Below, piece after piece: positions 13,650-64,000 of a stretch of DNA of 64,000 nt. The position numbers and the translations under genes were made by a program. The DNA lies in assembly GCA_029938715.1 (NCBI GenBank), contig JAOZUK010000009.1, forward strand, positions 3,504-67,503, written 5' to 3'. Below the pieces are notes generated by a model that did not search any database, was not told where the DNA came from, and saw only the letters and a list, made by a program, of their open reading frames with translations. Source of the DNA: Bacteroidales bacterium. GTDB lineage: Bacteria; Bacteroidota; Bacteroidia; Bacteroidales; GCA-2748055. How positions within the stretch are numbered: position 1 is the first letter of the stretch; each line of letters starts with the position of its first letter.

Positions 13650-13721
13650 ACAAATATAATGAGAATATTCTCATACTAAAAGCATGAAATCAATTAAATC
13701 CATCAATCTTAGTTAAAAAGC

Positions 13722-23800: not shown

Positions 23801-26800
23801 GGCCATCGGATGAATAGGTCAGATCAGTTTCAATTGAAGTCACTGAAAGATTTGCACCACGTTTCCCAGATGTTTCTATTGTCTTCGGATTTCCATAAGA
23901 ATCAAAATCACTATACGAGGTTACTATTTCACGATCACTCTTATAAAAGTCCTTTTTCTGGATAAAATTTCCTTTAGTGGATTCATAGGAATAGTAGATA
24001 CTATCAGTCTCGCTATTACCATTTCTAGTGTATGTCTTGCTTACATACTGAGGTAAAGCATTCACATACCAGCCTGCGCTGATGTAGTCATATTTTTCCG
24101 TTATTGTTGCCTCACCGTTCACATTCATTCCCTTTTCAGAGATAAATCCATCATTATTGTAGTCAAACGAATTAGTCGTAGTAGTTCCTGCCTGGACATT
24201 CTGAATAGTTACTGAATCGGTTTTCACCAAATACTTGTGGACATCTATACTATCAATTGATGTATGTGTATCTGTAAATTGTAGATAACCCGCTACCGAA
24301 CTAATTGTATCAGAAACCGAATAGCTATGAAAAAAGGTTGTATCATAATCTAACCAGGACACCTTCGAGATATCTGATAAATCATTTTCCACCTTCCTCT
24401 TCGCAAACCCAAGAAAGCCTTTGCCCTCCAAATGGATCTTTGCTCCTTGATAATTATACTCTATAAATGATGAATCAGCCACCCCATTATCTGAAGATAT
24501 ACTGCTAAGTACATACCAAGGGGCAATAAAATCTATCACCGGAAATATGGCCGTGTTTTCTTTTTTGTAAACCGAGGAGTTGGTGAGTGGTTTATAAGAA
24601 TATCTTGTTTCAATCCCTAATCCATTGGTTATGGAAGTAACAAAATGACCAGGCTTACCAGAATCAACAAAACAAATTTTCTTATCGTTTTTTGGATCAA
24701 CTAATTCAACTATTCCATCCCCGTTAAAATCACCCTCTTTAACATCCTCCCCTAATTTAAAATTGCAGTTAACCGAATCGTAATTATAAGAAATTGTGGT
24801 ACCAGTTATAGAAGGCTTGAAATCATAAAAAATCATTTTCAGTGTATCCTTGCTGAATATGAGTAATTCATTTCTCCCATTTGCATCAATATCTGAGGCG
24901 ATGGCCTTACTGAAGATAGAATCATGACCATCGTAATGCCCTAAACTCACCCTTGGGCCCCTAGATGCGAGGTGATCAATAAAAAGCTCTCGACCTAGAC
25001 TTTCATCAGGGTAGGTAACCGAAGTTTCAGATCGAAATGAAGACCAACAATCGAGGTCGTCAACGTCATTGCATGACACTGAGAGATAAGTTTCATATTC
25101 ATATTCTAATCCATATGCTTCTAAAAAATCCTCCCATTCGGTAATAATATCGGGAAAAGTACACCCTCCAATTGATGTACAATATTCTCCCCAAAGGGAG
25201 GAAACACTAACCGTAATGGAATCAAACTCCTCATTTCCAAGAGAAACATAACCTGAAATTCCATCACCATTTAAATCGATTGATCCCAGATAACCACTAT
25301 TGATGGTATTCTCGTAAGCAAAACTATCAGCTTCAGGCTGGTATAGCATTATATGAAAAAAGGTACTGCTGTCCTGAATATAATCGTAAAAGCCATCACC
25401 GTTAAGCTCCATCCACTCTGGGTCCACTTCGGTCCCCAGCACATGGGTCCGTTTTTCATAATTGTCATCTATATACTGTACTTTTTTATCAATACAGAAT
25501 GGACTGTAACCTAGCTTCAAAATATCTGGTGAATAGTCCATTTCTAATTTAAGACCAAGGTTATCCGGCCCATATTTGAGAGTTCTGACCCGTTGAAAAT
25601 ATGTAGAGGCATCAATATCAAAGTTGATAAAGCGACATACATTGTAATCCAATACAATAGAGTCGGGATAACTATACTTATTTGAATCGCCCCCACAATT
25701 CGCATTTACATAGTCTATCCCATTAAATATGTTATAGTTATCACTTAAATGTGGTATTAGTGGACTCCATTCCAATACCTCAACCATCAGTTCCATAATC
25801 CCATCTCCATCAAAATCTCCAGCACTTACATTCTCGATATCATTGAAGTTATATGTATCTGGAATTGATGATCCATTACAATGAACAATACACATCTGCC
25901 TTAGTTCTGACCAACCCTCATAAACATAGGAGCGAGGAAGAATATCCGAAAAATCATGGACAGTTTTTATACCTACTGTTGAGCCCTTATACAGATAGTA
26001 AACCCAGTTATCTGTGTTAACGGTGACCAAGTCCGTATAGCCATCCCCAGTAAAATCACCTGAGAAATCCAGATAGTCCGGCCCTGAATTAATATATGTG
26101 GTACTGGGGGTTTGTTCCATATTTGGAACTGGGAATTCCCAATTTATTTTTGTTGCATTGAACCTGTAGTTATCTTTATCATATTGGACAATCTCGTCCA
26201 GGAGGGTTTCACTTTTGGTAGTATCATAAAAAAACTCATATTTGCCGAAGGACTCATTGTAAGATTCAATTGTAATATCTTTGAGCAACTGGTCGTTTAC
26301 AATAAGATCGTTATGGATGTAGCCATAACTGATATCATCCCGGGTGGTGTAGTGAAACGAAATAGTATTGACTGGGAATGAGGGAGCTTTTCCACCATAT
26401 TTTATTTCAGAAAGAAGGATCTCGCCAGTATCCTCATCTATCTCATAAGTGTATTCAATGGAATTACCGTTTCGGTCAGATACTTTATTTAACATCCATT
26501 TCCACTCAGTTGAAGCATCAAGTGATAATCTTGAATTTGCGGTGAATCCATATTCCATTGTACGCCCATCTGGAGTTGTGACTTTGAACCAAAATAGGTC
26601 ATAGTAAATTTGCTCCCTTGTGATCTTGATATTTGAGACATGCTCAGTTCTGAAGGAATCTGCATCCAAGCCTGCACTATTTAATGCTATTAGTCTTTGT
26701 CCATCCCAGGCAACTCGACATTCACTATTGGTATCAGAAATTATTGAGCTTTCATTATCATAATACTTTGTTTTCCCGACAGCCACAATCGACGAGAGCC

Positions 26801-27260
26801 CAGACAAACTCCATCCCCTCCCTAATAGTCCATTTCCTGCCTGGCTGTTATAAGTAATGGCAAGCTGGGGAACCATTCCTTTATTTCCTGAAGGAACCTC
26901 TATGGGGATGCTATAGGTCGCTGCCCCTGTTGGGCTTACTCCGGGTTGTCCATTTATCGTGCCTACAATAAAACTTCCATCCAGTGTACCTATGGAGTCA
27001 AGGGTATTGCCAGGTGGAACAGTGTGAGGAGGTTCTTCAATATTCCAGGGATCGGCATTGGCTATAAAGGAGCCATTGCCGTTGGATGAAAATGTGAAGC
27101 CGGCATCCAGGGTAATAGTATTGTGAGCAACGATCTCCACATTATCATAATGCGAAAAAATGGTATCCACCGTAACTGTTTGATTGTATATAAGTGTATC
27201 GTTAGCAAGAACCTGAACCGATACAGATAGAAGCAATAGGGTTGGGAGGATTTGTTTCAT
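20826..27260 (-). CDS. Rhs/YD-repeat polymorphic toxin with SpvB-like N-terminal, FG-GAP/VCBS and TcdB-mid-like regions
   Basis: Signal peptide MKQILPTLLLLSVSVQVLA (ATG at 27260; the track TTG is at 27269). SpvB-like block GMVPQLAITYNSQAGNGLLGRGWSLSG. Several GDFxGDG repeats and many YD repeats (YxYDxxGN). Rhs core end GRIYDPLLGRFLSPDP...YVLNNPLKYVDPSGY, followed by a ~265-aa variable tip. Confidence 0.9.
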   Translation of the reverse strand: MKQILPTLLLLSVSVQVLANDTLIYNQTVTVDTIFSHYDNVEIVAHNTITLDAGFTFSSNGNGSFIANADPWNIEEPPHTVPPGNTLDSIGTLDGSFIVGTINGQPGVSPTGAATYSIPIEVPSGNKGMVPQLAITYNSQAGNGLLGRGWSLSGLSSIVAVGKTKYYDNESSIISDTNSECRVAWDGQRLIALNSAGLDADSFRTEHVSNIKITREQIYYDLFWFKVTTPDGRTMEYGFTANSRLSLDASTEWKWMLNKVSDRNGNSIEYTYEIDEDTGEILLSEIKYGGKAPSFPVNTISFHYTTRDDISYGYIHNDLIVNDQLLKDITIESYNESFGKYEFFYDTTKSETLLDEIVQYDKDNYRFNATKINWEFPVPNMEQTPSTTYINSGPDYLDFSGDFTGDGYTDLVTVNTDNWVYYLYKGSTVGIKTVHDFSDILPRSYVYEGWSELRQMCIVHCNGSSIPDTYNFNDIENVSAGDFDGDGIMELMVEVLEWSPLIPHLSDNYNIFNGIDYVNANCGGDSNKYSYPDSIVLDYNVCRFINFDIDASTYFQRVRTLKYGPDNLGLKLEMDYSPDILKLGYSPFCIDKKVQYIDDNYEKRTHVLGTEVDPEWMELNGDGFYDYIQDSSTFFHIMLYQPEADSFAYENTINSGYLGSIDLNGDGISGYVSLGNEEFDSITVSVSSLWGEYCTSIGGCTFPDIITEWEDFLEAYGLEYEYETYLSVSCNDVDDLDCWSSFRSETSVTYPDESLGRELFIDHLASRGPRVSLGHYDGHDSIFSKAIASDIDANGRNELLIFSKDTLKMIFYDFKPSITGTTISYNYDSVNCNFKLGEDVKEGDFNGDGIVELVDPKNDKKICFVDSGKPGHFVTSITNGLGIETRYSYKPLTNSSVYKKENTAIFPVIDFIAPWYVLSSISSDNGVADSSFIEYNYQGAKIHLEGKGFLGFAKRKVENDLSDISKVSWLDYDTTFFHSYSVSDTISSVAGYLQFTDTHTSIDSIDVHKYLVKTDSVTIQNVQAGTTTTNSFDYNNDGFISEKGMNVNGEATITEKYDYISAGWYVNALPQYVSKTYTRNGNSETDSIYYSYESTKGNFIQKKDFYKSDREIVTSYSDFDSYGNPKTIETSGKRGANLSVTSIETDLTYSSDGRFLLSKEGPLDYKTTYEYDSSTGMLESQTTPNRTNTTLEYGPFGAMKKITGPNLIEKSSRLFWAHDHPSSPDSALFYNWTAVSGTSPALKFFDERGRELRSVAMGFNNDSIYVDTKYDTKGRVSQKSMPYYSTNSPLWTTITYDNFGRMLTVTSPDTAVSTYNYSLLRTTVTTIKGSDTIETSKLVNAMGETTQSEDNIDNVVHYSYYPDGKLKFSYVSTHTSDTTSFSYDAQGNRTSISDPDAGTITSMYDAFGQLLRQINAKNDTTTYQYDVAGRTTKLTDARGDIFYSYVTDTTTAAFGQLDSVYNSDHSLQEVYTYDSDYGMLLTHTRTGVNKTFTNTFTYDWFGRPMTRTYPSDFELEYAYTSNGDLDQVRGNGLTLWSCNDANSLGQITSYSQGGNSTSLTYNMHGELNRVYTAGVMDMCYTFDDMGNLSSRKDDRSDQMEVFEYDNLNRLIGIDYYDPNGYVSTADLNIGYDNCGNIISKTDVSSTINYGEGEKPHALTSIENPNKSYDPPPQNISYNVFNKMSLISDTLSGGGLLELDIKYGLGNQRIKTTQARDSIVERVKYFNGDYEEDSTSAGIKKYHYIYGGTGLTAIFVMEGSGNDTLHYVLSDHLGSLTAIVNASTSEVKNYSFNAWGMPRNASDWTISDTSYLFAGRGFTGHEHLSDFNLINMNGRIYDPLLGRFLSPDPIVQAPGNPNSYNRYSYVLNNPLKYVDPSGYLGDPTTLTKYSPFSEADAYGDNSRFSQAPNMISSYGGGSGFGNNWFDIQTDPTGGWWKAPTGEMVNRYSGKRMNTGEFRSRYLDPSSSISESDKQFVGFGTRYNEDLDIVESHFGWEITEIPMSSNGYKDVTAEFDEQLSNTMIYFSLAKHRFDREFPKDRLRKLLFFRSKVNDHAVFDIKRTSFSRANLGSEYGFYRGQSFRYDDFGNYNFGLAARSFGLSLKDALRGAGLNQIRKLDPDLNNSLGYFDHTRDTQLIIMGFFHEY

Positions 27261-27283
27261 GGTGTGCAAGGTGTTTGTGGGGA

Positions 27284-46727: not shown

Positions 46728-47363
46728 ATGGTTAAGATGGGAAAGACTAAATACAGGGATTGCCTTAGTGGTAAGGAGATGGATGCCCCCACACTGAGAA
46801 AGCATTATAAGAAGCAGGCAAAACGAAACCGAAAGTATAATGCCTCTTACATTAAGGTTCCTGTCTGGTATGATAATCGGAGGGTGAACTTGTTCTTTGT
46901 AAAACTGGGATCAGGTGGCAAATGGAAAGCCTTTATCACCAATGACCTGGAGATAGGGTTCAACAAACTGATTGAGACGTACCAAATCAGATGGTCTATC
47001 GAAGTTTTTTTCAAGGATGGAAAACAGCACCTGCAGCTTGGCAAATGCCAGTGCAATAACTTCGACTCACAGATCGGTGCCACCACCCTGGCCATGATGC
47101 AGTACATGATGTTGCTACTGTATAAACAGATGCATTACGGGAACAGCCTCGGAAGCATCTTTGACATGTTGAGTTCGCAGGCAGAGGAGGAAAACATCAC
47201 CCGGTATATAATGGAGATATTCTGGGAGATCGTTAACGGGATCGGTGAAATACTCAAGGTTGATTGCATGGAACTGATCGAAGATATTATCCGGGACAAC
47301 CGAAGAGCGGAGGAGATCATGAGAATAATTTCACCGGCCCTTGAGAAAAAACGAGCTGCATGA
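46728..47363 (+). pseudogene. IS4-family DDE transposase, C-terminal fragment
   Basis: YQIRWSIEVFFKDGK matches the IS4 Y-x2-R-x3-E-x6-K signature. Only ~210 aa remain and the upstream catalytic region is missing. Surrounding DNA (45.8-46.7 kb) has only short broken frames. Confidence 0.6.
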
Positions 47364-48056: not shown

Positions 48057-48767
48057 TCAGTCACCAATAAAGACTTTAACCTGATTTGACACTGGCATTT
48101 CATGGTAGTGTTTGCCTTGTAGTAATGAACCATTACGCTTACGCAGTTTACCACCCCACTGTTTGAAAGTAAAAGTTACTCCCTGTGCTTTACATTGGTC
48201 ACGCAGGTGTATCACCCATTCTTCTTTGCATGGCCTGAAACTTTTTCCAGACTCACCACCAACAACTACCCAATCAATACCTGTTAAATCCAGTTCTCCT
48301 AAATCACTCAGTAATGGTTCAGCACACACGAACTTATTTGATGCTGGTGTCTGCTTCAAATGGTCAATCCTGTCAGCATATCTGGCCTCTTCCAAGGTGA
48401 TACCTAACCAGATGTTATCAGACCAATTTAATGTTGGAGATAATTCCAGCATTCTGTCAGCACGCTTGGTCAGCACTATGAAGGTATGTTGGGGGCATCT
48501 ATTCATTGTATCGAATATTTTTCTGATAAAGTTGCCGGGGATATCTTCATGAAAAATATCGGACATCGAGCATGGAAAAATCTGTCGTGGCTTCTTCCAT
48601 TTCATTGGTAATTCCAACAAATCTTCATGCAGAGTCAGGTTAAAACCATTCGTATATCTTGGATTCTTCCACCTCCTCACAATTGACATTACTGAAGAGT
48701 TAACTGTAAGAAAAGAAGAATTAATTCGTATAGGTGAATGGAAATACTTTTTTCGCAATTCCCACAC
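48057..48767 (-). CDS. Phage Gp37/Gp68-like protein (DUF5131), apparently lacking the Cys-rich N-terminus
   Basis: LELPMKWKKPRQIF..SMSDIFHE, TFIVLTKR, VCAEPLL, IDWVVVGGESG and TFKQWGG all fit the family. The expected N-terminal WNP..GC...GC.NCYA block is absent in frame. Confidence 0.65.
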   Translation of the reverse strand: MWELRKKYFHSPIRINSSFLTVNSSVMSIVRRWKNPRYTNGFNLTLHEDLLELPMKWKKPRQIFPCSMSDIFHEDIPGNFIRKIFDTMNRCPQHTFIVLTKRADRMLELSPTLNWSDNIWLGITLEEARYADRIDHLKQTPASNKFVCAEPLLSDLGELDLTGIDWVVVGGESGKSFRPCKEEWVIHLRDQCKAQGVTFTFKQWGGKLRKRNGSLLQGKHYHEMPVSNQVKVFIGD

Positions 48768-50369: not shown

Positions 50370-50912
50370 AATAGTCCAGACTTGATCTGACAATTTTGGA
50401 TTCTCTTTCAATTAAAAGCAGAACATCAGGGTATAATTTGAATCCTGTATTGGTATTCACATAACCGGACTCAAGCCAGGGCGGAACCCTCATCGTATTC
50501 AACTCCTAAGTTGAGGTGGTGATGAACAAACTGCTTTGGGATGGTAATATTGAGATAGTGATTTCAAAACAAAGATTAGTATCTACCCTGTTAGTGGTGC
50601 TGCACGCAGTGCGGCAGCATTAACGGCCATCCAAACCACAGTTGGAGTGAGTGCGTGAAGTGAGCGTAGCCGCAGGCAAGCGAAGCGAACGAAACGAATG
50701 AACTCCAACTCCCAACCCAACCCCCCCAAACAACTGTCCCAAAGTCCTGTTTGGCTGGTACAGCCGAATGGACTCGTTTGTTCTTAATAAAGAGGGAAGG
50801 TATTTTAGCTTTCTTCTTTATGTATATTATTAATTTAAGCTATTTATTTGCTTAATATTATATATATAGTAGTGTGGTACCCGTACAACATGTACATCTA
50901 CAACATGTACAT

Positions 50913-51263
50913 TTACCTGTCGTGAAGCCTATAACATATTGGTATTTCATTGATTACCCATTCAACACCCCCTTGAAACGGCTTTTTTACCACATACCCG
51001 TTATCCTGCAATTTCTTCCAAGATGTCAGGAACTTTTTCTCCGGCAAACCCGAACGTTGCTGTACCCTGTTTTTGTTTATGATGTAGGTCCGGGAATTGC
51101 TCAGTAGCCAGGTAAGCAATCCGATGTCGGTAAAATCCAATTCAGGGTCCCGGTAGATATCCATTGCGAACGACTTCTTATAATGCGTTCGGCTTGAACG
51201 CGAACGATTATAGGTTGTCCGATTTACGAACGTATTTTGTCCATTTAAACCTGTTTTTTTCAT
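50913..51263 (-). CDS. Hypothetical protein with probable winged-helix domain
   Basis: 116 aa. DIGLLTWLLSNS...RSGLPEKKFLTSWKKLQDNGYVV resembles wHTH modules of mobile-element replication and regulatory proteins. Confidence 0.4.
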   Translation of the reverse strand: MKKTGLNGQNTFVNRTTYNRSRSSRTHYKKSFAMDIYRDPELDFTDIGLLTWLLSNSRTYIINKNRVQQRSGLPEKKFLTSWKKLQDNGYVVKKPFQGGVEWVINEIPICYRLHDR

Positions 51264-53983: not shown

Positions 53984-54292
53984 TTACAGTTTTCCAACAA
54001 TAGTGGTCTTCAGTCTTCGCAATTCATTCAGGGTCTCCAAGGATATCCATGATATTATCAATTGTTTTTCAGTAAGTAATCCTTCTTCAGTTAAACTCAT
54101 TCCAGTTCGTCTTCTTACAATGTTGTTGAATTCCAATAAATATTCTTCAAATACAAATGCCACAATTTCAATTATTCCAGTAAGTCGTCCGATTTCAAGT
54201 TCCAGATTTATTCCAATATTTCCATAACAGTAGAAGGCCATTACTTTTTCAATTATTTCAGTCTTAATATCGTTTACAGTCCTGCACATCAT
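53984..54292 (-). CDS. Hypothetical protein coupled to an upstream RHH gene
   Basis: 102 aa. Its ATG overlaps the stop of the RHH ORF (TAATG). Confidence 0.35.
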   Translation of the reverse strand: MMCRTVNDIKTEIIEKVMAFYCYGNIGINLELEIGRLTGIIEIVAFVFEEYLLEFNNIVRRRTGMSLTEEGLLTEKQLIISWISLETLNELRRLKTTIVGKL

Positions 54293-54468
54293 TAATTTTT
54301 CAGTCTTTCTTCAGTATCGTTTTCCAGTAAATTGTCCATCAGAAATTTCTTCACGAATGTTGAAACAGGCAGATGCGCTTCCCGTGCCTTTTGTCTTAGG
54401 AATTGGTAGAATTCCAGGTCCAGGGTCAAGTTCATTTTGCCATACTTCTTTCTTACAGTTTTCGTCAT
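54292..54468 (-). CDS. Unlisted 58-aa ribbon-helix-helix (CopG/MetJ-like) protein
   Basis: My own translation: MTKTVRKKYGKMNLTLDLEFYQFLRQKAREAHLPVSTFVKKFLMDNLLENDTEERLKN. It shows the beta strand (MNLTLDL) followed by two helices that is typical of RHH proteins. Confidence 0.5.
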   Translation of the reverse strand: MTKTVRKKYGKMNLTLDLEFYQFLRQKAREAHLPVSTFVKKFLMDNLLENDTEERLKN

Positions 54469-54747: not shown

Positions 54748-55011
54748 CTACGATATCTCGGAATCACGAAAAACCACGTCAGAGGGTTCCAAGCCAAAGC
54801 AAGAGGCATATCTATATAAAGAAATCACCGAGATAGGACGGCCGGTTTCAATTTGTTCAACAGTCCTACGAGAGATGCCATATTCTTCTTCAATTTTTTT
54901 TCTTGACATTCCTGACCCCCACCTGTATTCACGTAGTAGTTGCCCGGTGTTGGCAAGACGCTTGTGAAACAATTCCGGGACCTGCTGTTTCCTGTATTTT
55001 GTTTTGGACAT
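54748..55011 (-). CDS. XRE-family HTH regulator
   Basis: LREYRWGSGMSRKKIEEEYGISRRTVEQIETGRPISVISL. Confidence 0.65.
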   Translation of the reverse strand: MSKTKYRKQQVPELFHKRLANTGQLLREYRWGSGMSRKKIEEEYGISRRTVEQIETGRPISVISLYRYASCFGLEPSDVVFRDSEIS

Positions 55012-55242
55012 TAGTTCTGTATTTCTACATAAATACAGCCTTCACAAAGTTTTGTGAGTTCAGTAGAATGTTAATAGCTAATTCGATGCATTTAAACATC
55101 TTTTAATTGGCAGTTATTGGGGAGGGCAGAATTGGTGTTAAGGCGTATAACATAGAGAATAACCCCAAACAATGTAGATCGTAGGTCCCCCACGAAGAAC
55201 TTTCATCGAAAAAAATATATTGAAAACTGAAACAGTAGGAAA

Positions 55243-55497
55243 TTATAATTCAATCTCCCGGAAGAAGGACTCTATGGAGATGTCCTCATAGTAGGAGATA
55301 ATTCGAATCAATGTACTCAGATAATATTCTTCTTGACCCCGCTCAACTTTGTAGTAGGTTTTCTTGTCCATACCTATCTTCTCTGCAAAGTCAATATAGC
55401 TGAGATCGGTTTTCTCTTTCCTAAGCTTTCTTACTTGTTCGCCAATGATGACTAACCGATGGTCTACTTTTGCGGAATCCTTAGTTTTCATGTACAA
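55243..55497 (-). CDS. XRE-family HTH regulator (repressor-like)
   Basis: VRKLRKEKTDLSYIDFAEKIGMDKKTYYKVERGQEEYYLSTL. Palindromic operators lie just upstream. Confidence 0.7.
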   Translation of the reverse strand: MYMKTKDSAKVDHRLVIIGEQVRKLRKEKTDLSYIDFAEKIGMDKKTYYKVERGQEEYYLSTLIRIISYYEDISIESFFREIEL

Positions 55498-55522
55498 ACT
55501 GAATTTGCCACTAATATAAGCA

Positions 55523-55589
55523 ATTACCCACGTAAATGGGTAATAATGCGAATAATTGCATTATATTTGTACCCACGTAAATGGGTAAT
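55523..55589. promoter_or_regulatory. Two tandem palindromic operator candidates
   Basis: attaccca-cgtaaa-tgggtaat (55523-55544) and taccca-cgtaaa-tgggtaat (55570-55589). They lie between the divergent XRE gene (start 55497) and a small plus-strand ORF (ATG 55591). Confidence 0.6.
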
Positions 55590-55590
55590 T

Positions 55591-55779
55591 ATGGAAATAA
55601 AACAGGTATTAACTATTGTTCTATATCCACTTCGAACAAACTTTCCTGTGGAGAATGAACATATTCTAATCTGTGAGGTTGTAGGAAATCGTCACGATCG
55701 ATTCTATTTTGCTGAACTTCCTGCTATTGACAACGAAATAAGAAGGAGACTCAGGTACTATGAAAATATTGTCAATTGA
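55591..55779 (+). CDS. Small hypothetical ORF divergent from the XRE repressor (Cro/excisionase-position gene)
   Basis: 62 aa from the ATG at 55591 (MEIKQVLTIV...). Called from position only. Confidence 0.3.
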   Translation: MEIKQVLTIVLYPLRTNFPVENEHILICEVVGNRHDRFYFAELPAIDNEIRRRLRYYENIVN

Positions 55780-55891
55780 AATGTATCAATTATAGAGTAT
55801 ACATGAAAATGATACAATTTCCCAAAATATTACACCCCGGAATGAAACAATCATCAGCGGTCTATGCATCAAAAAAAAACCAACCCTAAAA

Positions 55892-56524
55892 ATGATACTC
55901 ATGAAGACAGTTATTTATACCAGGGTAAGTAGCCAAAGTCAGGATAATCAGAGACAGATTTTAAACCTCAAGAGAATTGCGGATGAGAAAAACTGGAAGA
56001 TGAAACGCACTTTCCAAGAGAAGGTTTCTGGAACAACCAGAGCAAATTCAAGATCTGAGTTTTATAAAATGATTCAATACATCGAAAACAACAGTATTGA
56101 TTTAGTATTGATAAGCGAGGTTTCAAGAATTGGCAGGCGGGTACTTGATGTCCTCAATAGCGTTGAACTACTACACAAAAAACATACAGGTATATTCATT
56201 CAACAGTTCAACATTATCACCTTCCAGGATGGTAAAGAGGACCCAATCGCCAAAATGCTACTACAAATGCTCAGCATCGGTGCGGAAATGGAGAATAGTA
56301 TGCGAAAAAATAGGCAGTTGGAAGGGATTCAGCTGGCAAAACTTAATCAGAAATATAAAGGTCGGCAAAAGGGAGCAAAGGCAACTCCATCTAATCTATT
56401 GGAAAAGTATTCTGATGTTTACGATTTGATAAAGAAAAGTGACCTGTCATTAAGAAGGATTGCACAAATCACAGAACATAGTATTAACACTGTTAGGAAG
56501 ATCAGGAATATAGCTTCTCTATAG
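55892..56524 (+). CDS. Small serine recombinase (resolvase/invertase family)
   Basis: VIYTRVSSQSQDNQRQ catalytic-serine motif, LVLISEVSRIGRR, and a C-terminal HTH (LSLRRIAQITEHSINTVRKI). Confidence 0.85.
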   Translation: MILMKTVIYTRVSSQSQDNQRQILNLKRIADEKNWKMKRTFQEKVSGTTRANSRSEFYKMIQYIENNSIDLVLISEVSRIGRRVLDVLNSVELLHKKHTGIFIQQFNIITFQDGKEDPIAKMLLQMLSIGAEMENSMRKNRQLEGIQLAKLNQKYKGRQKGAKATPSNLLEKYSDVYDLIKKSDLSLRRIAQITEHSINTVRKIRNIASL

Positions 56525-56548
56525 TCAAAACTTTCTGTGAGGATGGAG

Positions 56549-57433
56549 TTATTTAATTATAATTTTGGTTCTTGATTTCTGAACTTCTCCAAAAGGAAAC
56601 ATTAGGACAAATGCATTCCAGGTATTATAAAAAAAGTGATATTCAAATACACATTGATCATCCCCATTAAGGTTCATCTGAAATGAACCATCTTTTCGAT
56701 GGTTCGTGTTACTTAAGTAATCCTGAACAAATGGCCAAGTGGCATTCAAAGTTCTATCCCAATAGATTCTCCCAAATGTCTCTGTAAAAGAATTAGATTG
56801 TATAAAATTCTGTGTTTGACAGTTCAGGTTTTTCAATGATACGCCTTTCAAAACCAAAAGTGCACATCTCTTTGATGAGCACTCTACAAATTTTCTCATA
56901 GTGGCATGATATGAGGCTCCAAATTTCTGTGCAAGAGCAATTGGTGTACCTATTTCAAGCGGATGCTTCTTAATCAACTCGTCAAAATACCTACCTTGGA
57001 ATAGTACCTCAGAAGCAAAATAGCTTGCCTCCAATTCGAACTCTTCTTTTGCGTCAGAGCTAAGAGAGATTTCATCATCTTCAAGGATTTCAAACATCTC
57101 TCTCTGCCATGGTAACACATCATGTCCAACCTCATGAAGTTTTATGAAATTTCTTCTTGGGGGAATCAAATTCGAATCTACATAAATGGTTTTTTTCTTA
57201 CGATCCAATATCCCATTTACCTTTTTCAGGGCATGCTTTAAAATGTCTTTAGATTTTGAAATATAGTTTTTTGGGATCCTTTCTATATATCTACTCTCAC
57301 TTATTTGTAACTCTGTGTATTTTGCAATCTTATCTGTCGGTGTAGGAAACACACCGACAGATTTACTCTGTTTAAGAATATCGTAGGCAATATCCTGTAC
57401 CTTTTCTTGTGATGTGAGAGGATTAATTGCCAT
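56549..57433 (-). CDS. ImmA/IrrE-family zinc metallopeptidase (CapP-like position)
   Basis: HEVGHDVLPW (HExxH) in a 294-aa protein. It overlaps the upstream XRE gene by 11 nt. Confidence 0.75.
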   Translation of the reverse strand: MAINPLTSQEKVQDIAYDILKQSKSVGVFPTPTDKIAKYTELQISESRYIERIPKNYISKSKDILKHALKKVNGILDRKKKTIYVDSNLIPPRRNFIKLHEVGHDVLPWQREMFEILEDDEISLSSDAKEEFELEASYFASEVLFQGRYFDELIKKHPLEIGTPIALAQKFGASYHATMRKFVECSSKRCALLVLKGVSLKNLNCQTQNFIQSNSFTETFGRIYWDRTLNATWPFVQDYLSNTNHRKDGSFQMNLNGDDQCVFEYHFFYNTWNAFVLMFPFGEVQKSRTKIIIK

Positions 57434-57782
57434 CTTTTTGGGATCGTAGGAATTTCAGGTATTTCATCAACTCTTCCTCTTCCTCTTCATTGAGATTCTC
57501 AGAAGATAAGGCAAAGCTTGTTAACGACTTTCTATTATTGTCTCCATTCTCTTTGTTTTTTACAATCCCCGCAGTTATTAATAGGGCATTAAACTCAACA
57601 TTATAAAATTCCGCCAACTTATAGAGAATGTTTACGGATGGACTCTTAATCTTATTATTTTCTAACTGACTAAGATAAGCATTTGAAATCTTCGTCAGTA
57701 ATTCAACTTGCCTAAGTGATAATTTCTTTAATTCTCGCTGGTCCTTAAGCAACTGACCTAAAGTGGGTTTCTTTGTAGCCAT
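57423..57782 (-). CDS. XRE-family HTH regulator (CapH/ImmR-like position)
   Basis: LKDQRELKKLSLRQVELLTKISNAYLSQLENNKIKSPSVNIL plus an acidic C-terminal helix. Divergent from the Ubl operon. Confidence 0.8.
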   Translation of the reverse strand: MATKKPTLGQLLKDQRELKKLSLRQVELLTKISNAYLSQLENNKIKSPSVNILYKLAEFYNVEFNALLITAGIVKNKENGDNNRKSLTSFALSSENLNEEEEEELMKYLKFLRSQKDGN

Positions 57783-57814
57783 GACATTAAGGTGTTGATT
57801 TTCAAGAACAATAT

Positions 57815-57878
57815 AAGCAATTATGCTTGAAATAACAAACAGTGCTTAATACAAGCAACGAATAACAAGCGGTGCTTG
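57815..57878. promoter_or_regulatory. Three AAGCA/TGCTT palindromes (candidate operators) in the divergent intergenic region
   Basis: aagca-atta-tgctt (57815-57828), tgctt-aatac-aagca (57843-57857) and caagc-ggt-gcttg (57866-57878). Confidence 0.5.
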
Positions 57879-57906
57879 ATATAGTTAATGTTATTTCGTA
57901 TCTTTG
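57870..57906 (+). promoter_or_regulatory. Candidate Bacteroidota-type promoter for the small ORF and Ubl operon
   Basis: TATCTTTG (57899-57906) fits the TAnnTTTG -7 consensus. A CTTG at about the -33 position lies inside the third palindrome. Confidence 0.35.
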
Positions 57907-57941
57907 TATCGTTATCGGATTATTTACTTAAAAAATATCAA

Positions 57942-58070
57942 ATGGCGAAAGATTCAGATGGTAAGAAGTATAACCGCATCCCTGGGTATACTCGAAAGGT
58001 TGGAGGGAAGACCGTTAGTGTCAGACCTCATGTTCGTAGTAATCGAACAGATAGTAAAGGAGACAAGTGA
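57942..58070 (+). CDS. 42-aa highly basic small ORF, first gene of the Ubl operon
   Basis: MAKDSDGKKYNRIPGYTRKVGGKTVSVRPHVRSNRTDSKGDK has 12 K/R in 42 residues. The ATG is 36 nt after the candidate -7 box, and the stop is 26 nt before the Ubl ATG. The longer track ORFs 57888 and 57904 start upstream of the putative promoter. Confidence 0.35.
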   Translation: MAKDSDGKKYNRIPGYTRKVGGKTVSVRPHVRSNRTDSKGDK

Positions 58071-58096
58071 TTTATTAATTTTTACAGATTGAAAAG

Positions 58097-58387
58097 ATGA
58101 TTGAAAATTTAAACAGTAACAACAGGAAAAAGGGACAAGATAATGAGCTTGAAATCGTCATCAAGACCCCTAACGGAGACTGGACCAATACATTTTTGAA
58201 GACAACAAAAGTTGCTGAAGTTATTGCTGCAGTTATTCAGCATTTTAACTACGCAAGCAATGGTAAGTATGAGCTTCGTCTTGAGTCCGATCCAGACACA
58301 TTATTGCAGCCGGAGAGACCGCTTGTAAGTTATGGCATTATTGATGGGACGGTCTTAGTGTTCATTGACTTTGGAGCTGCTGTATGA
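58097..58387 (+). CDS. bilA: Ubiquitin-like (single beta-grasp) protein, BilA-like
   Basis: 96 aa. The alternating beta/alpha pattern (ELEIVIKTPNGDW...KVAEVIAAVIQHF...YELRL...LVSYGIIDGTVLVFIDFGAAV) fits a beta-grasp fold. Its stop overlaps the E2 start (ATGA). The fold is inferred, not computed. Confidence 0.6.
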   Translation: MIENLNSNNRKKGQDNELEIVIKTPNGDWTNTFLKTTKVAEVIAAVIQHFNYASNGKYELRLESDPDTLLQPERPLVSYGIIDGTVLVFIDFGAAV

Positions 58388-58866
58388 GTGTGCTGAAAGA
58401 AGTTTCTTTAATGAAAATCAGAAAGGAACTTAAGGATTGTATTGATTATGGAAAAAGGATAGGTTGGATTTTGTCAGACATTGATGAATCCAACCTATCT
58501 TATACCGTTCAGATGAGTTCTCCTATTGATGGCGAAGTTTATATAGTTGAAGTTATCTTTGATAATTACCCTGAGATCCCTCCACTAATAGATTTTGTTC
58601 ATTATCAAACTGGGCAGAAGAATATTCCTAATGCCTACCCTAAAAACAAGGACTCTTTTTTTCACCCGAATGGCCCATGTATATGCAATCCCTGTTCTCG
58701 CAAATCTTATAAAGAATTTGTACGTACAGGTCCTCATGGCGATTGGAAATTGATTGGATGGCAAAAGAATCCCAAAGTTGGGACACTAATAAGCATGGAT
58801 GCAATATTAAGAACAATCTATTCACGAATAAGCAATCCCGAATTTTATGAAAAGAGGATGGGTTAA
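58384..58866 (+). CDS. bilB: E2 (UBC-like) conjugating enzyme homolog, BilB-like
   Basis: 160 aa with FFHPNGPCIC, that is the HPN motif followed by a candidate catalytic Cys, as in UBC-fold E2s. N-terminal helix MKIRKELKD. Confidence 0.7.
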   Translation: MSVLKEVSLMKIRKELKDCIDYGKRIGWILSDIDESNLSYTVQMSSPIDGEVYIVEVIFDNYPEIPPLIDFVHYQTGQKNIPNAYPKNKDSFFHPNGPCICNPCSRKSYKEFVRTGPHGDWKLIGWQKNPKVGTLISMDAILRTIYSRISNPEFYEKRMG

Positions 58867-59452
58867 TAAGTCATTTCAGTACTTAAAGCTTGGAGATAGG
58901 ATTTCTCCAGCGGATAATGTCAGATATTATTTTAGCATTGAAGTATTGGAATTTACAGAGTCCGTATTAAAAGAATATGGGTCAATTGAACCCTCACATG
59001 AAGGCATTGTTCTTTGGGCAGGTAGAAAGAATGACAATAAAATCATTGTTAATTCAGCAATTGCTCCGGACACAGATTCTTCCGGCACCCATATAATCAT
59101 AAAACCGGAGTCGATGGTTAGGTTTATTACTTTTTTGTCTGATAGTAAACTTACATATGTTGGGCAGATTCACTCTCATCCAGGGAGCTGGGTTGGCCAT
59201 TCATCAGGTGATAATGATCTCTCTTGTTTCAAAAGAGAGGGATTAATATCTTTTGTTGCCCCTAACTATGGATTAGAAGGAATACTCCCTTTTAGTCAAT
59301 GTGGAGTTCACAGATATATGGATGGGAATTTCACTTTGTTGTCCAAAACTTATGTTGCAAAAAGAATGAAGATTCTTGGGATTCAAGCCAAATTATTGGA
59401 TCTGAGAAATAAAATGGATATAAGATGGAACGTGAAGAATGGTATAGACTGA
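58847..59452 (+). CDS. bilC: JAB/JAMM metalloisopeptidase, BilC-like
   Basis: HSHPGSWVGHSSGD gives an exact H-x-H-x7-S-x2-D JAMM motif, with an upstream Glu (SHEGIVLWAG). Overlaps the E2 gene by 20 nt. Confidence 0.8.
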   Translation: MKRGWVNKSFQYLKLGDRISPADNVRYYFSIEVLEFTESVLKEYGSIEPSHEGIVLWAGRKNDNKIIVNSAIAPDTDSSGTHIIIKPESMVRFITFLSDSKLTYVGQIHSHPGSWVGHSSGDNDLSCFKREGLISFVAPNYGLEGILPFSQCGVHRYMDGNFTLLSKTYVAKRMKILGIQAKLLDLRNKMDIRWNVKNGID

Positions 59453-60831
59453 GAAATGATCGGATGAATAGAGTGGATGATGTGAACCTTGCTCAATCCA
59501 CCAAAAGATCAATAGGTGTAGTAATTTCTCCAGAGCACCTTGATCACTATTCCATTCAGATTATGTCCTACATGTCGTTGAATATGCTTTCTCGGTGGTG
59601 TCCTTCCTTTACAATAGATCTACCTGATGAAAATCAATGTATCATTCCTGGATTTAGAAATAGAACACTTAAGGAAGTTGCTTTAGAGTTAGTGCAAAGA
59701 AATGATCCTTTCGGAGAATTTACTGTGAATAGCATCTTACCATCAGATTACAATATAGTACTATATATAGGTGAATGTAGTCATGCAGAAGGATCAAATA
59801 TGATCTGGATTGATGCAGAAGGATGGCTTGCAGGGTATGGTCAGAATATGTATAGTAATCTTAATAAGCGTAATAAAAATAACAAGAATCCAATTGGTCC
59901 TTCGTTCGCTGCCTGTTTAGGTGTGTCAGAAGTTTTAAAAAGGCATCTTGGTCTTCAAGTAAGTGAAAGTTTCATCCGGTGGTATTCTATTTATGATTTA
60001 CAATCGGATTCCAATCATGTTACTCTTTCTAACCCACCTATTTCAAGATTATTGGAGGTTGGAACGCTGCACCAAATAGGTTGTGGAGCAGTAGGATCCT
60101 CATTGGACTTGCTGTTCTCATTTCTCAACATCAAAGGTAACATCCATCTCATAGATTATGATAGTGTGTCTGTTCCTAATACTGCCAGTTCAATGGTATT
60201 TACGGCCAAGGATGGATTAGAAGAAATAGATAAAGTGGACAGCTGTTACAGTTTCTTAGAAAAGGTTGATGGACTTATACCTTACCCTCACAAATGCGAC
60301 TACGGTACATTTATCAAAAAGCACGATTTGTTAAATGATTATCCAGATATAGTTTTGTGTTTAGCTAACGAGAAAAACATCTGGTCAACAATCCAACATA
60401 ATTATCCACCTTTGGTTCTTCATGCCACGACTTCACCAAATTGGGGGGTGAATCTTGGAAGACATATCCCTTTTCAAGATTGGTGCATTGTTTGTCGTTT
60501 TGGTATAGATGAGTACGAAACAATTCCTGTATGCTCTCAGGCCAAGGTAGATTCTGGAGGGGAGAAGGAGGAAATTTTAGGAATATTGCCCTTTCTATCC
60601 ACAGCTGGTGCAATATTAATACTATCTGAAATTCTTAGATCAAGAATAGACGGATATTGCCTAACCAAAGATAATTTTGTGCAATTTTCATTTAAGGATA
60701 CCAATGTAGGATTTATCAAGTTAAAGTTGTCAAGAAACGAAAATTGCACTGTATGTAATAATCAGACAAAAGAGGAATATTCATTTCTTAGGAGACAAAT
60801 ATCATATAATCAAATTCATAAGGGTGAATAA
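59425..60831 (+). CDS. bilD: E1-like (ThiF/MoeB-fold) adenylating enzyme, BilD-like
   Basis: Rossmann motif IGCGAVGSSLD and two CxxC pairs (WCIVCRFG and NCTVCNNQ), typical of E1/ThiF zinc sites. Overlaps the JAB gene by 28 nt. Confidence 0.7.
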   Translation: MEREEWYRLRNDRMNRVDDVNLAQSTKRSIGVVISPEHLDHYSIQIMSYMSLNMLSRWCPSFTIDLPDENQCIIPGFRNRTLKEVALELVQRNDPFGEFTVNSILPSDYNIVLYIGECSHAEGSNMIWIDAEGWLAGYGQNMYSNLNKRNKNNKNPIGPSFAACLGVSEVLKRHLGLQVSESFIRWYSIYDLQSDSNHVTLSNPPISRLLEVGTLHQIGCGAVGSSLDLLFSFLNIKGNIHLIDYDSVSVPNTASSMVFTAKDGLEEIDKVDSCYSFLEKVDGLIPYPHKCDYGTFIKKHDLLNDYPDIVLCLANEKNIWSTIQHNYPPLVLHATTSPNWGVNLGRHIPFQDWCIVCRFGIDEYETIPVCSQAKVDSGGEKEEILGILPFLSTAGAILILSEILRSRIDGYCLTKDNFVQFSFKDTNVGFIKLKLSRNENCTVCNNQTKEEYSFLRRQISYNQIHKGE

Positions 60832-60957
60832 TAAATGTAAAATATATACATAGTTCTACTAATCCTCTTACAGTATTGATTTATTCAACTTTTTTTGACG
60901 ACCTTGGATTTACTTTTCCAATTTATATAGGAATAAGGTATATTTTTCATTTCTGTT

Positions 60958-60965
60958 TATATTTG
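60958..60965 (+). promoter_or_regulatory. Candidate -7 box for the deaminase gene
   Basis: TATATTTG fits TAnnTTTG, 17 nt upstream of the ATG at 60982, inside a 150-nt AT-rich gap after the E1 gene. Confidence 0.3.
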
Positions 60966-60981
60966 TTTTAAACTGTTTAAT

Positions 60982-62499
60982 ATGGGAGATCCGGCAAAAT
61001 CTTTAATCACCGAAGAAAAACCTAAAGACTCTCTCGATATAATAAAATCAACACATACGTCTGAGATTGTAATAGCTCTTTGTGGTCAACTTGGAACTGA
61101 TTTGAAAAAAATAGAAGAATTATTGACTACTGAGCTAAAACATAAATTTAGATATGAATGCCAGACTATTAAGTTAAGCTCCTTTATTTCAAGATATACC
61201 GATAAAAAGCTTTCATCAATCATAAATTCCTATGAAAGGATTAAAGCTGGGATGGATGGTGGCAATGAATTAAGGGAAAAATATGACAATCAAATATTGG
61301 CCGAGTTTGCTATACAAAAGATTATTTCAGATCGAGTTAGCGAAGAATCTACTGAAAATCTTGAGCAAGAAAAATTCGATGACAGAAGAAAGTGTTTTAT
61401 TATTGATTCCATAAAGCATCCAGCTGAGATTAAGCTCTTAAATGAGGTTTATAGAGATTCATTTTATGTTATTGGAGTTTTTTCTCCAATAGGACTAAGA
61501 GCGAAAAATCTCGAAAAATCGTTTGGCCTAAATTCAATATCAAAGGTATATGAGCTTATCAATCGAGATACTGGTGAGGATTTATTATATGGTCAAAAAG
61601 TTGAAGAATCATTCATAAATTCAGACTATTTTATCAGAGTTAGTTCTAACGAGAAAAGAAAGCTCAAGCCTAAGATCGAAAGATTTTTAAACTTACTATT
61701 TGACATTGGTATTAATACTCCTTCTCCAAATGAGACCCCTATGTACCAGGCCACTGCAGCGGCTGCAAATTCAGCTTGTCTTTCAAGGCAGGTTGGTGCC
61801 TGTATTACTGATTCAAGTGGAGATATTCTGTCATTAGGATGGAATGATGTTCCGACTTATGGGGGAAACTTATATCCTAACTCGGATTTGGATATAGATG
61901 AACGATGTTACAATATTGGAGATTGTGAGTGCGCAAATATAAAAAAGAAAGAAAAAATTAAGAGTGATATACTCACTGAGTTAAATAACGCTGAAATTTT
62001 GAAGCCTGGTGAGCATACCTCAGTTATCAACGATATTCTTGACAGAAATGGGATCAAAAACCTTATAGAGTTTGCTCGTTCAATACATGCGGAAATGCAT
62101 GCAATAATTCTTGGTAGCCAAAAGTCTGGCAGCAAAATGGTTGGAGGAAAGCTATATTGTACTACATATCCATGTCATAACTGTGCTCGTCATATCATTG
62201 TTGCTGGAATTAGTGAAGTATATTACATCGAACCATATAAGAAAAGTTTAGGAATTGAATTGCATGCAGATGCTATTACAGAAGATGAAAATGAAAATAA
62301 TAAGGTGAGAATTTTAATGTATGAAGGTGTTGCACCAAAAAAGTACATGGAGTTTTATAAATTAGTTTCTGATGATCGGAAAATAAAGGTGAAATATCAG
62401 GATTTATACACAATAAAACCAAAAAGTACGATTACCTTAAGGGCCCTTCATCAGCTCGAAGCATCGGTTTCAGAAAATCTCAAGAAGAAAGGCTTGTGA
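60982..62499 (+). CDS. Two-domain protein: degenerate P-loop kinase-like N-domain plus dCMP/cytidine-deaminase zinc domain (anti-phage dCTP-deaminase / AvcD-like architecture)
   Basis: C-terminal CDA motifs SIHAEMHAI (H-A-E) and YPCHNCARHI (P-C-x2-C). The N-terminal ~230 aa carry a Walker-A-like remnant, VIALCGQLGTDLK. The total of 505 aa matches the described fusion. Confidence 0.7.
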   Translation: MGDPAKSLITEEKPKDSLDIIKSTHTSEIVIALCGQLGTDLKKIEELLTTELKHKFRYECQTIKLSSFISRYTDKKLSSIINSYERIKAGMDGGNELREKYDNQILAEFAIQKIISDRVSEESTENLEQEKFDDRRKCFIIDSIKHPAEIKLLNEVYRDSFYVIGVFSPIGLRAKNLEKSFGLNSISKVYELINRDTGEDLLYGQKVEESFINSDYFIRVSSNEKRKLKPKIERFLNLLFDIGINTPSPNETPMYQATAAAANSACLSRQVGACITDSSGDILSLGWNDVPTYGGNLYPNSDLDIDERCYNIGDCECANIKKKEKIKSDILTELNNAEILKPGEHTSVINDILDRNGIKNLIEFARSIHAEMHAIILGSQKSGSKMVGGKLYCTTYPCHNCARHIIVAGISEVYYIEPYKKSLGIELHADAITEDENENNKVRILMYEGVAPKKYMEFYKLVSDDRKIKVKYQDLYTIKPKSTITLRALHQLEASVSENLKKKGL

Positions 62500-63211: not shown

Positions 63212-63502
63212 TCAATTCAGAAAACAGGTTGTTCCTGAAATTATTTGTGTTGCACCTGGTTCCGAATGCAGACCCAAATCCAATACCATTTTCACAAGCT
63301 CGTCCAACCGGATTCCAAGGCCATCCTGACAGCCATCCTGAGCCAAAATAAAGCCATTCTTCACCTCTATCCTGCCGCAGACAACTGGAGTACCATCTGC
63401 ATCCCAACCTCGCTTAATTGTGCCGTAAAACCTGCGGTCTCGAGAAGCTTGCGCCATAAACAATTCTGCGATTTTGAACTGGTTTTCTTTTTTCTTGTCC
63501 AT
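63212..63502 (-). CDS. Hypothetical small protein
   Basis: 96-aa ORF with an ATG start (MDKKKENQFKIAELF...). No family was recognised. Confidence 0.3.
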   Translation of the reverse strand: MDKKKENQFKIAELFMAQASRDRRFYGTIKRGWDADGTPVVCGRIEVKNGFILAQDGCQDGLGIRLDELVKMVLDLGLHSEPGATQIISGTTCFLN

Positions 63503-64000
63503 GATGGTGAAAACGAGTTCAAAGTTACTTAAAATTCAGATAATGAGCAATAATGAGGATTTGGTCATGGATTGTACTTTAAGCAAAGTAGCGATTATTA
63601 TCAGCCTTCCTTTTCAAATAATTATAGTCAATTAGTCGCCAATTGCAATGACCATCAACGGCAGTCAAAAATTGATCAATCAAGAATACCTTCTCGATTT
63701 CCATATCTAATAGTAATGGTCTAATCTGATGACTGGCCAATCTGTTTTGGCATGTGCCGATCCTTAGTCTGAGCTTTATTATAAATACTACATGAGATGG
63801 AATTGTACATTAGGAGGGAGGGGAAGGGATCCCCCGGCCGGGGATACCCCTGGGAGACACCCACTTAGGAGGCCGGGGTGGACTTGAGAGGTCCTCTCGG
63901 TCAGAAATAAAGGGAAATCTGAGATATTATTTAGTATTAGGAAGCATCGGCGGGATAAAAATTCCACTAAAAAATCTGGAAATGGAATTTGATAGGTCAA

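Follow-up and report, generated by a model that had tools for sequence, protein, structure and literature searches.

The window analysed here is the whole of a 64,000-nucleotide stretch of DNA from a Bacteroidales bacterium (C908:3504-67503). The genome is in 945 contigs, and contig C908 runs 1969 bases past the window end. The presence of T9SS sorting domains characterises the genome as Bacteroidota-like. Towards the right-hand end of the window, a stretch of 7.3 kb (55243-62499) carries an XRE-family repressor (XRE1), a small open reading frame (sORF), a small serine recombinase (REC) and two sets of anti-phage genes; it is probably the cargo end of a larger integrative island. Genes were identified by Pfam, PADLOC, NCBIfam and PHROG profile matches on the open reading frames (ORFs) of the window (Table 1). 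A previous annotation, made from the bare DNA and referred to here as the sequence-only reading, had listed an XRE repressor with twin operators, a small divergent ORF, a serine recombinase of the resolvase/invertase type, a regulator pair, a five-gene ubiquitin-like (Ubl) operon and a deaminase. Every one of these genes is present at or near the position given for it (ORFs, Pfam, PADLOC, NCBIfam), and no housekeeping gene interrupts 55243-62499, as had been claimed. Two entries are amended. The small divergent ORF is real, but its conserved frame is the 62-amino-acid (aa) sORF and not the 106-aa ORF that opens at 55459. The Ubl operon contains bilA to bilD, but its supposed first gene, of 42-60 aa, has no family match and no homologue in two other Bil loci.

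Table 1. Features of the putative island and its immediate surroundings, in window coordinates (aa, amino acids; HMM, hidden Markov model).
Feature	Position	Strand	Evidence
DUF5131 gene, possible left part of the island	48057-48767	-	Pfam 2e-70
Two c29-family paralogues, 210 and 225 aa	52008-53433	-	relatives' cluster HMM 2e-65, 1e-35
Small ribbon-helix-helix-like gene, c14/c34 family	54292-54468	-	HMM 6.6e-12
XRE2, second XRE-family regulator	54748-55011	-	HTH_3 2.5e-7
XRE1 repressor	55243-55497	-	HTH_3 1.3e-6; PADLOC control protein 1.8e-9
Twin palindromic operators (putative), 20-22 bp, 45 nt apart	55523-55544 and 55570-55589		sequence; first copy is the 22-bp palindrome ATTACCCACGTAAATGGGTAAT
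sORF, 62 aa, between XRE1 and REC	55591-55779	+	alignments with relatives; 49% identity to L166 copy
REC, small serine recombinase, 207 aa	55901-56524 (ORF opens 55892)	+	Resolvase PF00239 1.2e-29
CapP metallopeptidase regulator	56549-57433	-	PADLOC capP 8.4e-19; Peptidase_M78 1.4e-9
CapH helix-turn-helix repressor	57423-57782	-	PADLOC capH 1.6e-11; HTH_3 2.1e-12
Promoter region common to capH and bil genes, AAGCA-N4/5-TGCTT-type palindromes	57810-57885		sequence
Short ORF ahead of bilA, Lys/Arg-rich, 42-60 aa	57888/57942-58070		ORF only
bilA-bilB-bilC-bilD (Ubl, E2, JAB deubiquitinase, E1)	58097-60831	+	PADLOC BilB 1.1e-3, BilC 5.2e-9, BilD 1.2e-10
Stand-alone anti-phage dCTP deaminase	60982-62499	+	NCBIfam NF041025 457.1 bits, cut-off 400; PADLOC dCTPase 1e-153
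Two ORFs at the distal cargo end, 60 and 100 aa	62537-63132	+	ORFs only
orf96, c30 family	63212-63502	-	HMM 1.2e-26
Spacer to window end	63503-64000	-	integrase just beyond
Tyrosine integrase, 446 aa	window-equivalent 64092-65432 = L002:2096-3436	-	Phage_integrase PF00589 2.5e-7, 31.1 bits, cut-off 27.1

XRE1 is transcribed divergently from sORF and REC. Two palindromes lie in the interval, and the second abuts the ATG of sORF. The product of sORF aligns with ORFs of about 56-75 aa found in the same position in relatives. Its AF2 model has three strands and one helix; the mean pLDDT of 66.7 is too low for a fold search, and the ESM Atlas has no named cluster for this protein. Related REC loci were collected from species genomes (49) and metagenomes (80), giving 129 in all, with up to 10 kb fetched on each side. 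The metagenome loci were found by an alignment-based scan; a scan with the REC sequence alone gave none. Of these loci, 78 contain a complete REC together with 900 nt or more of upstream DNA. In 48 of the 78, an XRE gene is found no further than 800 nt from REC, on the other strand, and in 35 of the 78 an sORF is present between the two. In L166 the order is the same as in the window, including the second regulator, with identities of 40% (XRE2), 35% (XRE1), 49% (sORF) and 55% (REC). XRE-sORF-REC is a conserved three-part backbone module of a widespread Bacteroidota island family.

Paired palindromes are found near the XRE start in most relatives; their sequences vary. XRE identity is 75% and 61% inside two operator types and 29% between them, while REC identity is 78% and 73% inside the types and 74% between them. 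In L044 and L049, REC is 90% identical, XRE is 20% identical, and the operators differ. Because the operator type follows XRE identity and not REC, the upstream palindromes are best read as XRE sites and not as a res site for REC. The two in the window can thus be assigned to XRE1 as its predicted operators, in agreement with the sequence-only reading. XRE1 would bind both and so control the divergent transcript for the 62-aa protein and REC.

REC is a serine recombinase of the resolvase/invertase type, as had been proposed; it scores 103.7 bits against PF00239 (cut-off 23.3). Residues R8, S10, R76 and R79 are invariant in a 27-sequence alignment of the REC family, as are the Y-x-R-V-S-S motif and the arginines of S-R-I-G-R-R. 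The best match of the REC profile is Sin (Tn552 Bin3, PDB 2r0q; 1.1e-19), in which residues 4-203 align with Sin 3-197. It is followed by the Tn3 (residues 4-162) and gamma-delta (residues 5-158) resolvases (PDB 5cy1, 1gdt). There is no separate Pfam HTH_7 match in REC; coverage of the C-terminus comes from the full-length Sin alignment, and by that alignment and its length REC would have the C-terminal helix-turn-helix domain of a small serine recombinase. These nearest solved relatives are resolvases, which act on two sites in cis. REC resembles them in length (about 207 aa) and profile, with a full-length match to Sin. It differs in that its surroundings show neither a transposase nor plasmid features, and that no res site is recognised.

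REC is present in a single copy in the genome. In a large protein collection, 422 proteins are related to REC at E<=1e-20; many have a length of 207-210 aa and an identity of 60-86%. Plasmid and phage collections yielded only recombinases of 30-34% identity to REC; for plasmid and transposon resolvases the value is about 31-34%. Of two plasmid relatives that were inspected, the one from Enterococcus is a Tn3-family resolvase, encoded next to a transposase gene of the Tn3 family, and the one from Bacteroides sits on a small plasmid. There is no close relative among 2.9 million IMG/VR contigs, where the best match has 34% identity.

The part of these islands that varies is the DNA which follows REC. 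Among 76 loci, 482 pairs have at least 75% nucleotide identity over REC. In 326 of these pairs similarity is lost between -30 and +10 nt relative to the stop codon; 75 of the remaining pairs lose it at +11 to +80, 49 further out and 32 within REC. The DNA starting at the REC stop codon is the variable slot of the island family, and in the window it extends from 56549 to about 63.15 kb. In 68 loci the sequence extends at least 2 kb past REC; when genes of at least 80 aa are counted there, the first gene downstream of REC belongs to 40 different clusters. It is usually a defence or toxin-antitoxin gene. AbiEi/AbiEii is the cargo in at least 10 loci and HipBA in five. Other loci carry Fic/PDC-S24, Shedu with a PsyrA-like gene, AbiJ, a DRT-type reverse transcriptase with PDC-S64, Dsr1, IetAS, a type IIG restriction-modification enzyme with a Snf2 helicase, DruE-like helicases, TIR-like effectors or a KAP NTPase. 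Housekeeping genes come right after REC in L034, and after a single island gene (DUF5131) in L040. Bil, CapH/CapP and the deaminase were searched for in 54 loci (the 49 and five added by genome handle) and then in the 80 metagenome loci; none was found in either set (0/54 and 0/80; 0/129 overall).

In the window, the slot begins with the regulator pair. The recombinase does abut it as described in the sequence-only reading: the stop codons of REC (56524) and CapP (56549) face each other across a 24-nt gap, and the two genes are convergent. CapH, an XRE-type helix-turn-helix protein, and CapP, an M78 peptidase, are adjacent; their genes overlap by 11 nt and point away from the bil genes, so that the pair is divergent from the operon it would regulate. 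The palindromes of the common promoter region are candidate binding sites. The E1, E2 and JAB homologues of the operon lie in bilA-bilB-bilC-bilD order. The BilB profile match is weak, and BilA has only a sub-threshold YukD match (22 bits against a Pfam cut-off of 27). BilA is 59% identical to its counterpart in another genome of the phylum, G727, whose operon has the identical gene order at 39-59% identity. The shorter form of the ORF ahead of bilA (57942-58070, 42 aa) has no family match and no counterpart in the two other Bil loci that were examined. The deaminase has its zinc motif and a zinc-binding domain match (PF00383 1.3e-15). The two ORFs beyond it gave no family match in profile scans.

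Among 400 genomes of the phylum, only G727 yielded a close relative of this Bil system. There, CapP-CapH-BilABCD forms a unit with neither the deaminase nor REC. The closest deaminase found (49% identity, in G025) is likewise solitary. Because CapHP-Bil and the deaminase occur apart, the cargo is read as two separate systems and not one; judged by these matches, the slot holds two independent, already known anti-phage systems. BilABCD would run under its own CapH/CapP DNA-damage switch, and the dCTP deaminase would deplete dCTP. In G727 (L083:11593-18239), CapHP-Bil lies directly beside a complete Wadjet JetABCD, which makes a typical defence island.

The region is not shared with related species. 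The congener collections hold one genome per species, so the comparison is between species only. The deaminase is absent from 48 congeneric species (0/48), and these have no REC orthologue, only four distant matches of 26-33% identity. BilD is found in two of 400 other genomes of the phylum. A DNA search of 24 congeners gave no match to 54.0-63.0 kb; three gave matches, of 47-283 nt only, all within 63.05-63.9 kb. Because it was not found in the 48 congeneric species, the region is taken to be acquired. On this point the sequence-only reading, in which the defence genes travel as mobile cargo, is supported: they are horizontally acquired and not fixed across the genus.

Genes shared with the island family continue on both sides of the 7.3-kb stretch. 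On the left, homologues of the c29 paralogues lie upstream of REC in L040, L053, L105, L166, L168-L170 and others. The ribbon-helix-helix-like gene has weak Pfam matches (NikA-like/RHH, 0.04-0.1). The interval from 50.9 to 55.0 kb is a row of small minus-strand genes without family, plus the second XRE. Further left, HNH genes accompany the DUF5131 gene at 48-49.4 kb, and DUF5131 homologues are found inside related islands L038, L040, L142, L143 and L155. On the right, orf96 homologues recur downstream of REC in L037, L053 and L157, and homologues of orf292 are likewise among the genes recurring in REC loci. Three further well-conserved proteins occur in the islands of relatives: c9 (408 aa, 25 loci, e.g. 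L097:7798-9024) and c4 (378 aa, 29 loci, 86% mean column identity, e.g. L141:5489-6625) have no Pfam and no PDB match, and c2 (136 aa, 43 loci, e.g. L148:12747-13157) has no Pfam match. The stretch from the cargo to a tRNA-Asp gene holds c4 and c2 in several loci. The possibility that c4 is a hidden tyrosine integrase was rejected (hhalign probability 1.4%). A VapE-like primase is found in L040, L047, L053 and L166.

Just beyond the window end lies the tyrosine integrase. It matches a PHROG integrase (5e-25), and its translation shows ...HSCRRS...GHKSLKTAEQY, which includes the H-x-x-R and terminal Tyr region. It is present once in the genome. Genes of its cluster are found in 14 of the 129 other REC loci, and the best homologue in all data (31% identity, 1e-49) is directly upstream of REC in L173; there is no homologue at 1e-40 among 400 genomes of the order. 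One related island type runs REC, cargo, c2, integrase. Three copies of it (L138, L140 and L035) share 99.3-99.6% identity as far as a single position, 147 nt past the start of the integrase. Past this shared breakpoint they carry three unrelated flanks, each of which opens with a hairpin-like sequence. The three differing flanks fit three separate insertions, and the sequences make this island look like a currently active element.

The reading we prefer, and consider reasonably probable as a whole, is that the 7.3-kb stretch is the cargo end of an integrative island of at least about 52.0-65.5 kb, possibly starting from 48 kb, which has a variable slot, a conserved module and movement by an integrase. 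The data show the identities of the genes, the conservation of the module, the variability of the slot, the match between operators and XRE and the absence from congeners; we infer the enzyme that moves the island, the role of REC and the route of cargo exchange. The tyrosine integrase at the right end would be the most likely enzyme to move the whole island. REC, for its part, most likely works for the island that carries it, e.g. by resolving multimers of an excised or replicating form. The conserved REC gene would act as a fixed anchor at which cargo is exchanged between islands.

Several results count against this interpretation. The integrase just beyond the window shares only 26% identity with its counterpart in the L138 island, and among the 43 loci with at least 7 kb downstream of REC, an integrase of the cluster lies within 9 kb downstream in four, compared with 21 for c2 and 14 for c4. 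In L031, L036, L038, L042, L070, L075 and L155, c2 lies beside tRNA-Asp without a recognisable integrase; in these c2/tRNA-Asp islands REC itself could be the integrase. The window copy lacks c2, c4, c9 and the VapE-like primase, all common in relatives. No recognised res, hix or crossover site for REC is present in the window. Direct and inverted repeats between the 570 nt around and beyond the integrase 5' end and 30-64 kb were searched for with exact 12-mers, and only matches of chance size were found. Among 50.4-50.95 kb, 63.5-64.1 kb and the right end there were also none (local alignments scored 18-25). Searches for the end motif gave one copy only. Neither end of the window island was found, and repeats likewise did not reveal the ends in relatives L049, L035 and L155. 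At 537 nt beyond the integrase the contig ends, within a member of a gene family that has nine copies in the genome. The contig end (L002:3839-3973, window-equivalent 65835-65969) encodes the C-terminus of a protein family of about 600 aa which has many copies in congeners. Because the contig ends in a multi-copy family and offers no unique flank, the empty site could not be sought.

The missing genes also agree with another explanation, that of a decayed island which has become fixed: a mobile element brought the defence genes in, and nothing moves now. A winged helix-turn-helix (wHTH) gene at 50913-51263 encodes 116 aa, against about 300 aa for similar c18 proteins, and transposase fragments lie nearby at 46728-47363. 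Such a remnant is unlikely, but it has to be taken seriously. The reading frames of REC, XRE1, sORF and the integrase are uninterrupted and retain their conserved motifs, and the protein database lists identical REC proteins from 3-4 contigs, neither of which suits a decayed element.

The sharp loss of similarity at the REC stop codon could also be expected if REC were a cargo-docking enzyme which recombines a site at its own 3' end with incoming circular DNA, so that defence and toxin-antitoxin genes are captured and exchanged there, somewhat in the way that an integron integrase acts at attI. A candidate site exists. A 37-bp palindrome is found, once per locus, in 25 of the 120 loci that have at least 120 nt after REC, and it starts 7-13 nt past the REC stop in 22 of the 25 (e.g. 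L039:10637-10673, TTTCACCACATTATCACTTAATGATAATTTTGTGAAA; others are L033:4623-4659 and L130:10637-10673). In L044 it is 1544 nt downstream of REC, beyond a single DUF2130 gene. This palindrome could be a recombinase site; it could also be a transcription terminator. It is not found in the window, where only 24 nt separate REC from CapP, and none of the loci has a second site bounding the cargo. Sharp breakpoints would also be expected if homologous recombination used a conserved gene as its anchor, and the closest solved relatives of REC, being resolvases that use two sites in cis, do not favour docking. We regard it as rather improbable. The same holds for an integron-like elaboration, in which REC and the site at its 3' end would be a docking platform that captures circularised defence and toxin-antitoxin genes and swaps them into islands of Bacteroidota, and the XRE-sORF switch would time the swapping; this too is improbable.

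The sequence-only reading had gone further and treated the 7.3 kb from XRE1 to the deaminase as a self-contained cassette which REC excises and inserts. Part of this survives, as the defence genes are mobile-island cargo beside a recombinase; the 7.3-kb unit (55243-62499) and its movement by REC do not, and are very unlikely. The direct contact between REC and the cargo had suggested the idea, and the authors who described small serine recombinases beside defence genes (RADS; Andersen et al., PLoS Biol 2026, PMC13552941) postulate that such recombinases mobilise defence genes. There is also a 14/15-nt inverted match (55240-55254 and 56551-56565) flanking XRE-sORF-REC. However, it lies inside the coding ends of two genes and has no counterpart in 48 relatives, in which the mean best match is 11.1/15 against 10.75 in shuffles. 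Inverted repeats as transposon-like ends of the module were thus discarded as not general in relatives. No repeats are found at 55.0-55.2 kb or 62.5-63.6 kb, where the cassette boundaries had been sought. Backbone shared with relatives extends beyond both proposed ends (52.0-55.0 kb on the left; 63212-63502 and 64092-65432 on the right). Dozens of loci combine XRE-sORF-REC with other cargo, none of them with that of the window, and the exact cassette unit is not seen in any of the 129 REC loci. Because the module and backbone recur without this cargo, XRE-sORF-REC belongs to the island family and is not the head of a cassette. The separate occurrence of CapHP-Bil in G727 and the deaminase in G025 is also at odds with a single unit.

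It is highly improbable that REC is a DNA invertase which flips a promoter or gene segment (phase variation), with its position next to defence genes being regulatory or incidental: REC has a PHROG match named 'DNA invertase' (2.8e-33), JGI labels its relatives 'DNA invertase Pin-like', inversion is one option raised for RADS (PMC13552941) and a weak inverted repeat (55485-55507 / 55787-55809) brackets the operator-sORF region, but the arms of that repeat are 74% complementary and 10 kb contain 20 pairs of this kind, itself included, no conserved inverted repeats surround the module in relatives, REC reaches only 55 bits against the Mpi-type master DNA invertase model NF009949 (cut-off 272), and its best structural relatives are resolvases.

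Some features of the surrounding DNA should be noted. Within an A+T-rich region, 50583-50740 is a G+C-rich stretch of 160 bp, present once in the genome, and tandem GTACAACATGTAC-type palindromes lie at 50877-50910, just 3' of the wHTH gene. Together they could mark the left edge of the island or form an origin. Another short G+C-rich segment, also single copy, is found between orf96 and the integrase (63814-63900); a 173-nt stretch around it has 71% identity to DNA of congener G016. Neither 50583-50740 nor 63600-64000 has an Rfam match at the gathering score. Frames between the integrase and the gene at the contig end look disrupted. In L140, a 60-nt sequence just 3' of c2 (13664-13723) recurs 4.1 kb to the right (17808-17867) at 83% identity. 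Between the two copies lie c2, the integrase and an AbiE pair, and the copies could be att-type sites of a nested mini-element. Elsewhere in the window, 20826-27269 encodes a 2147-aa polymorphic toxin-type protein (SpvB, TcdB-middle, RHS repeats, Ntox44 tip), with small possible immunity ORFs and IS66/ISL3 transposases nearby. Because of these genes, the whole window can be considered a variable region.

In the hotspots of P2/P4 elements and phage-inducible chromosomal islands (PICI), backbone genes flank a slot of varying defence content, with an integrase at one end and a repressor switch. The window island has the same backbone-flanked variable slot, an integrase at one end and a repressor. 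Unlike these elements, it has no phage-type genes, primase or replication gene. Phage satellites combine an integrase with a primase or replicase and a phage link, and of these only the integrase is present. No relaxase, replication or transfer gene was found in 48-65 kb among the Pfam, NCBIfam and PHROG matches, and the island is thus not classed as an integrative mobilizable or conjugative element, which such genes define.

The association of small serine recombinases with defence genes is already published as RADS. In Bacteroidota these comprise 278 contigs with 0.877 known systems per contig, toxin-antitoxin systems being the commonest; the authors leave the role of the recombinase open, with mobilisation or inversion as their suggestions (PMC13552941). 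The window is like RADS in that a small serine recombinase gene adjoins anti-phage genes in a member of the Bacteroidota. It differs in that REC is convergent with the cargo and not co-transcribed with it, and in that REC is part of an XRE-sORF-REC module in a larger island with a tyrosine integrase. The words 'XRE', 'helix-turn-helix', 'deaminase' and 'ubiquitin' do not occur in the main text of that paper; its supplementary tables may list such loci. On a limited literature search, the XRE-sORF-REC module, the breakpoints at the REC stop codon and the 37-bp palindrome may be absent from print.

Both defence systems have described counterparts. CapH/CapP is reported upstream of 25 of 162 Bil operons, divergent from them and with a common promoter region (10.1101/2023.09.26.559546). 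The window locus follows this plan, with bilA-bilB-bilC-bilD in order and capH/capP upstream and opposite. It is a distant member of the BilABCD group, with weak HMM matches and the extra 42-60-aa ORF ahead of bilA, and its host belongs to the Bacteroidota, while most instances in that report are from plant-associated Rhizobiaceae (10.1101/2023.09.26.559546). The deaminase shows no difference from the anti-phage dCTP deaminases of NF041025; it is stand-alone and separate from Bil.

Taken alone, the window is an ordinary defence island which carries two known systems. It provides an instance from the Bacteroidota of Bil under CapH/CapP control, rare in this phylum (two of 400 other genomes). 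It also adds context to the question, raised in 2026, of why small serine recombinases adjoin anti-phage genes, since in this family the recombinase is accompanied by a repressor with its matching operators and by a conserved 62-aa protein. Variable DNA begins at the REC stop codon, where many members of the family have one conserved palindrome; these are concrete substrates with which cargo swapping, multimer resolution, or neither, could be told apart as the function of this recombinase family.

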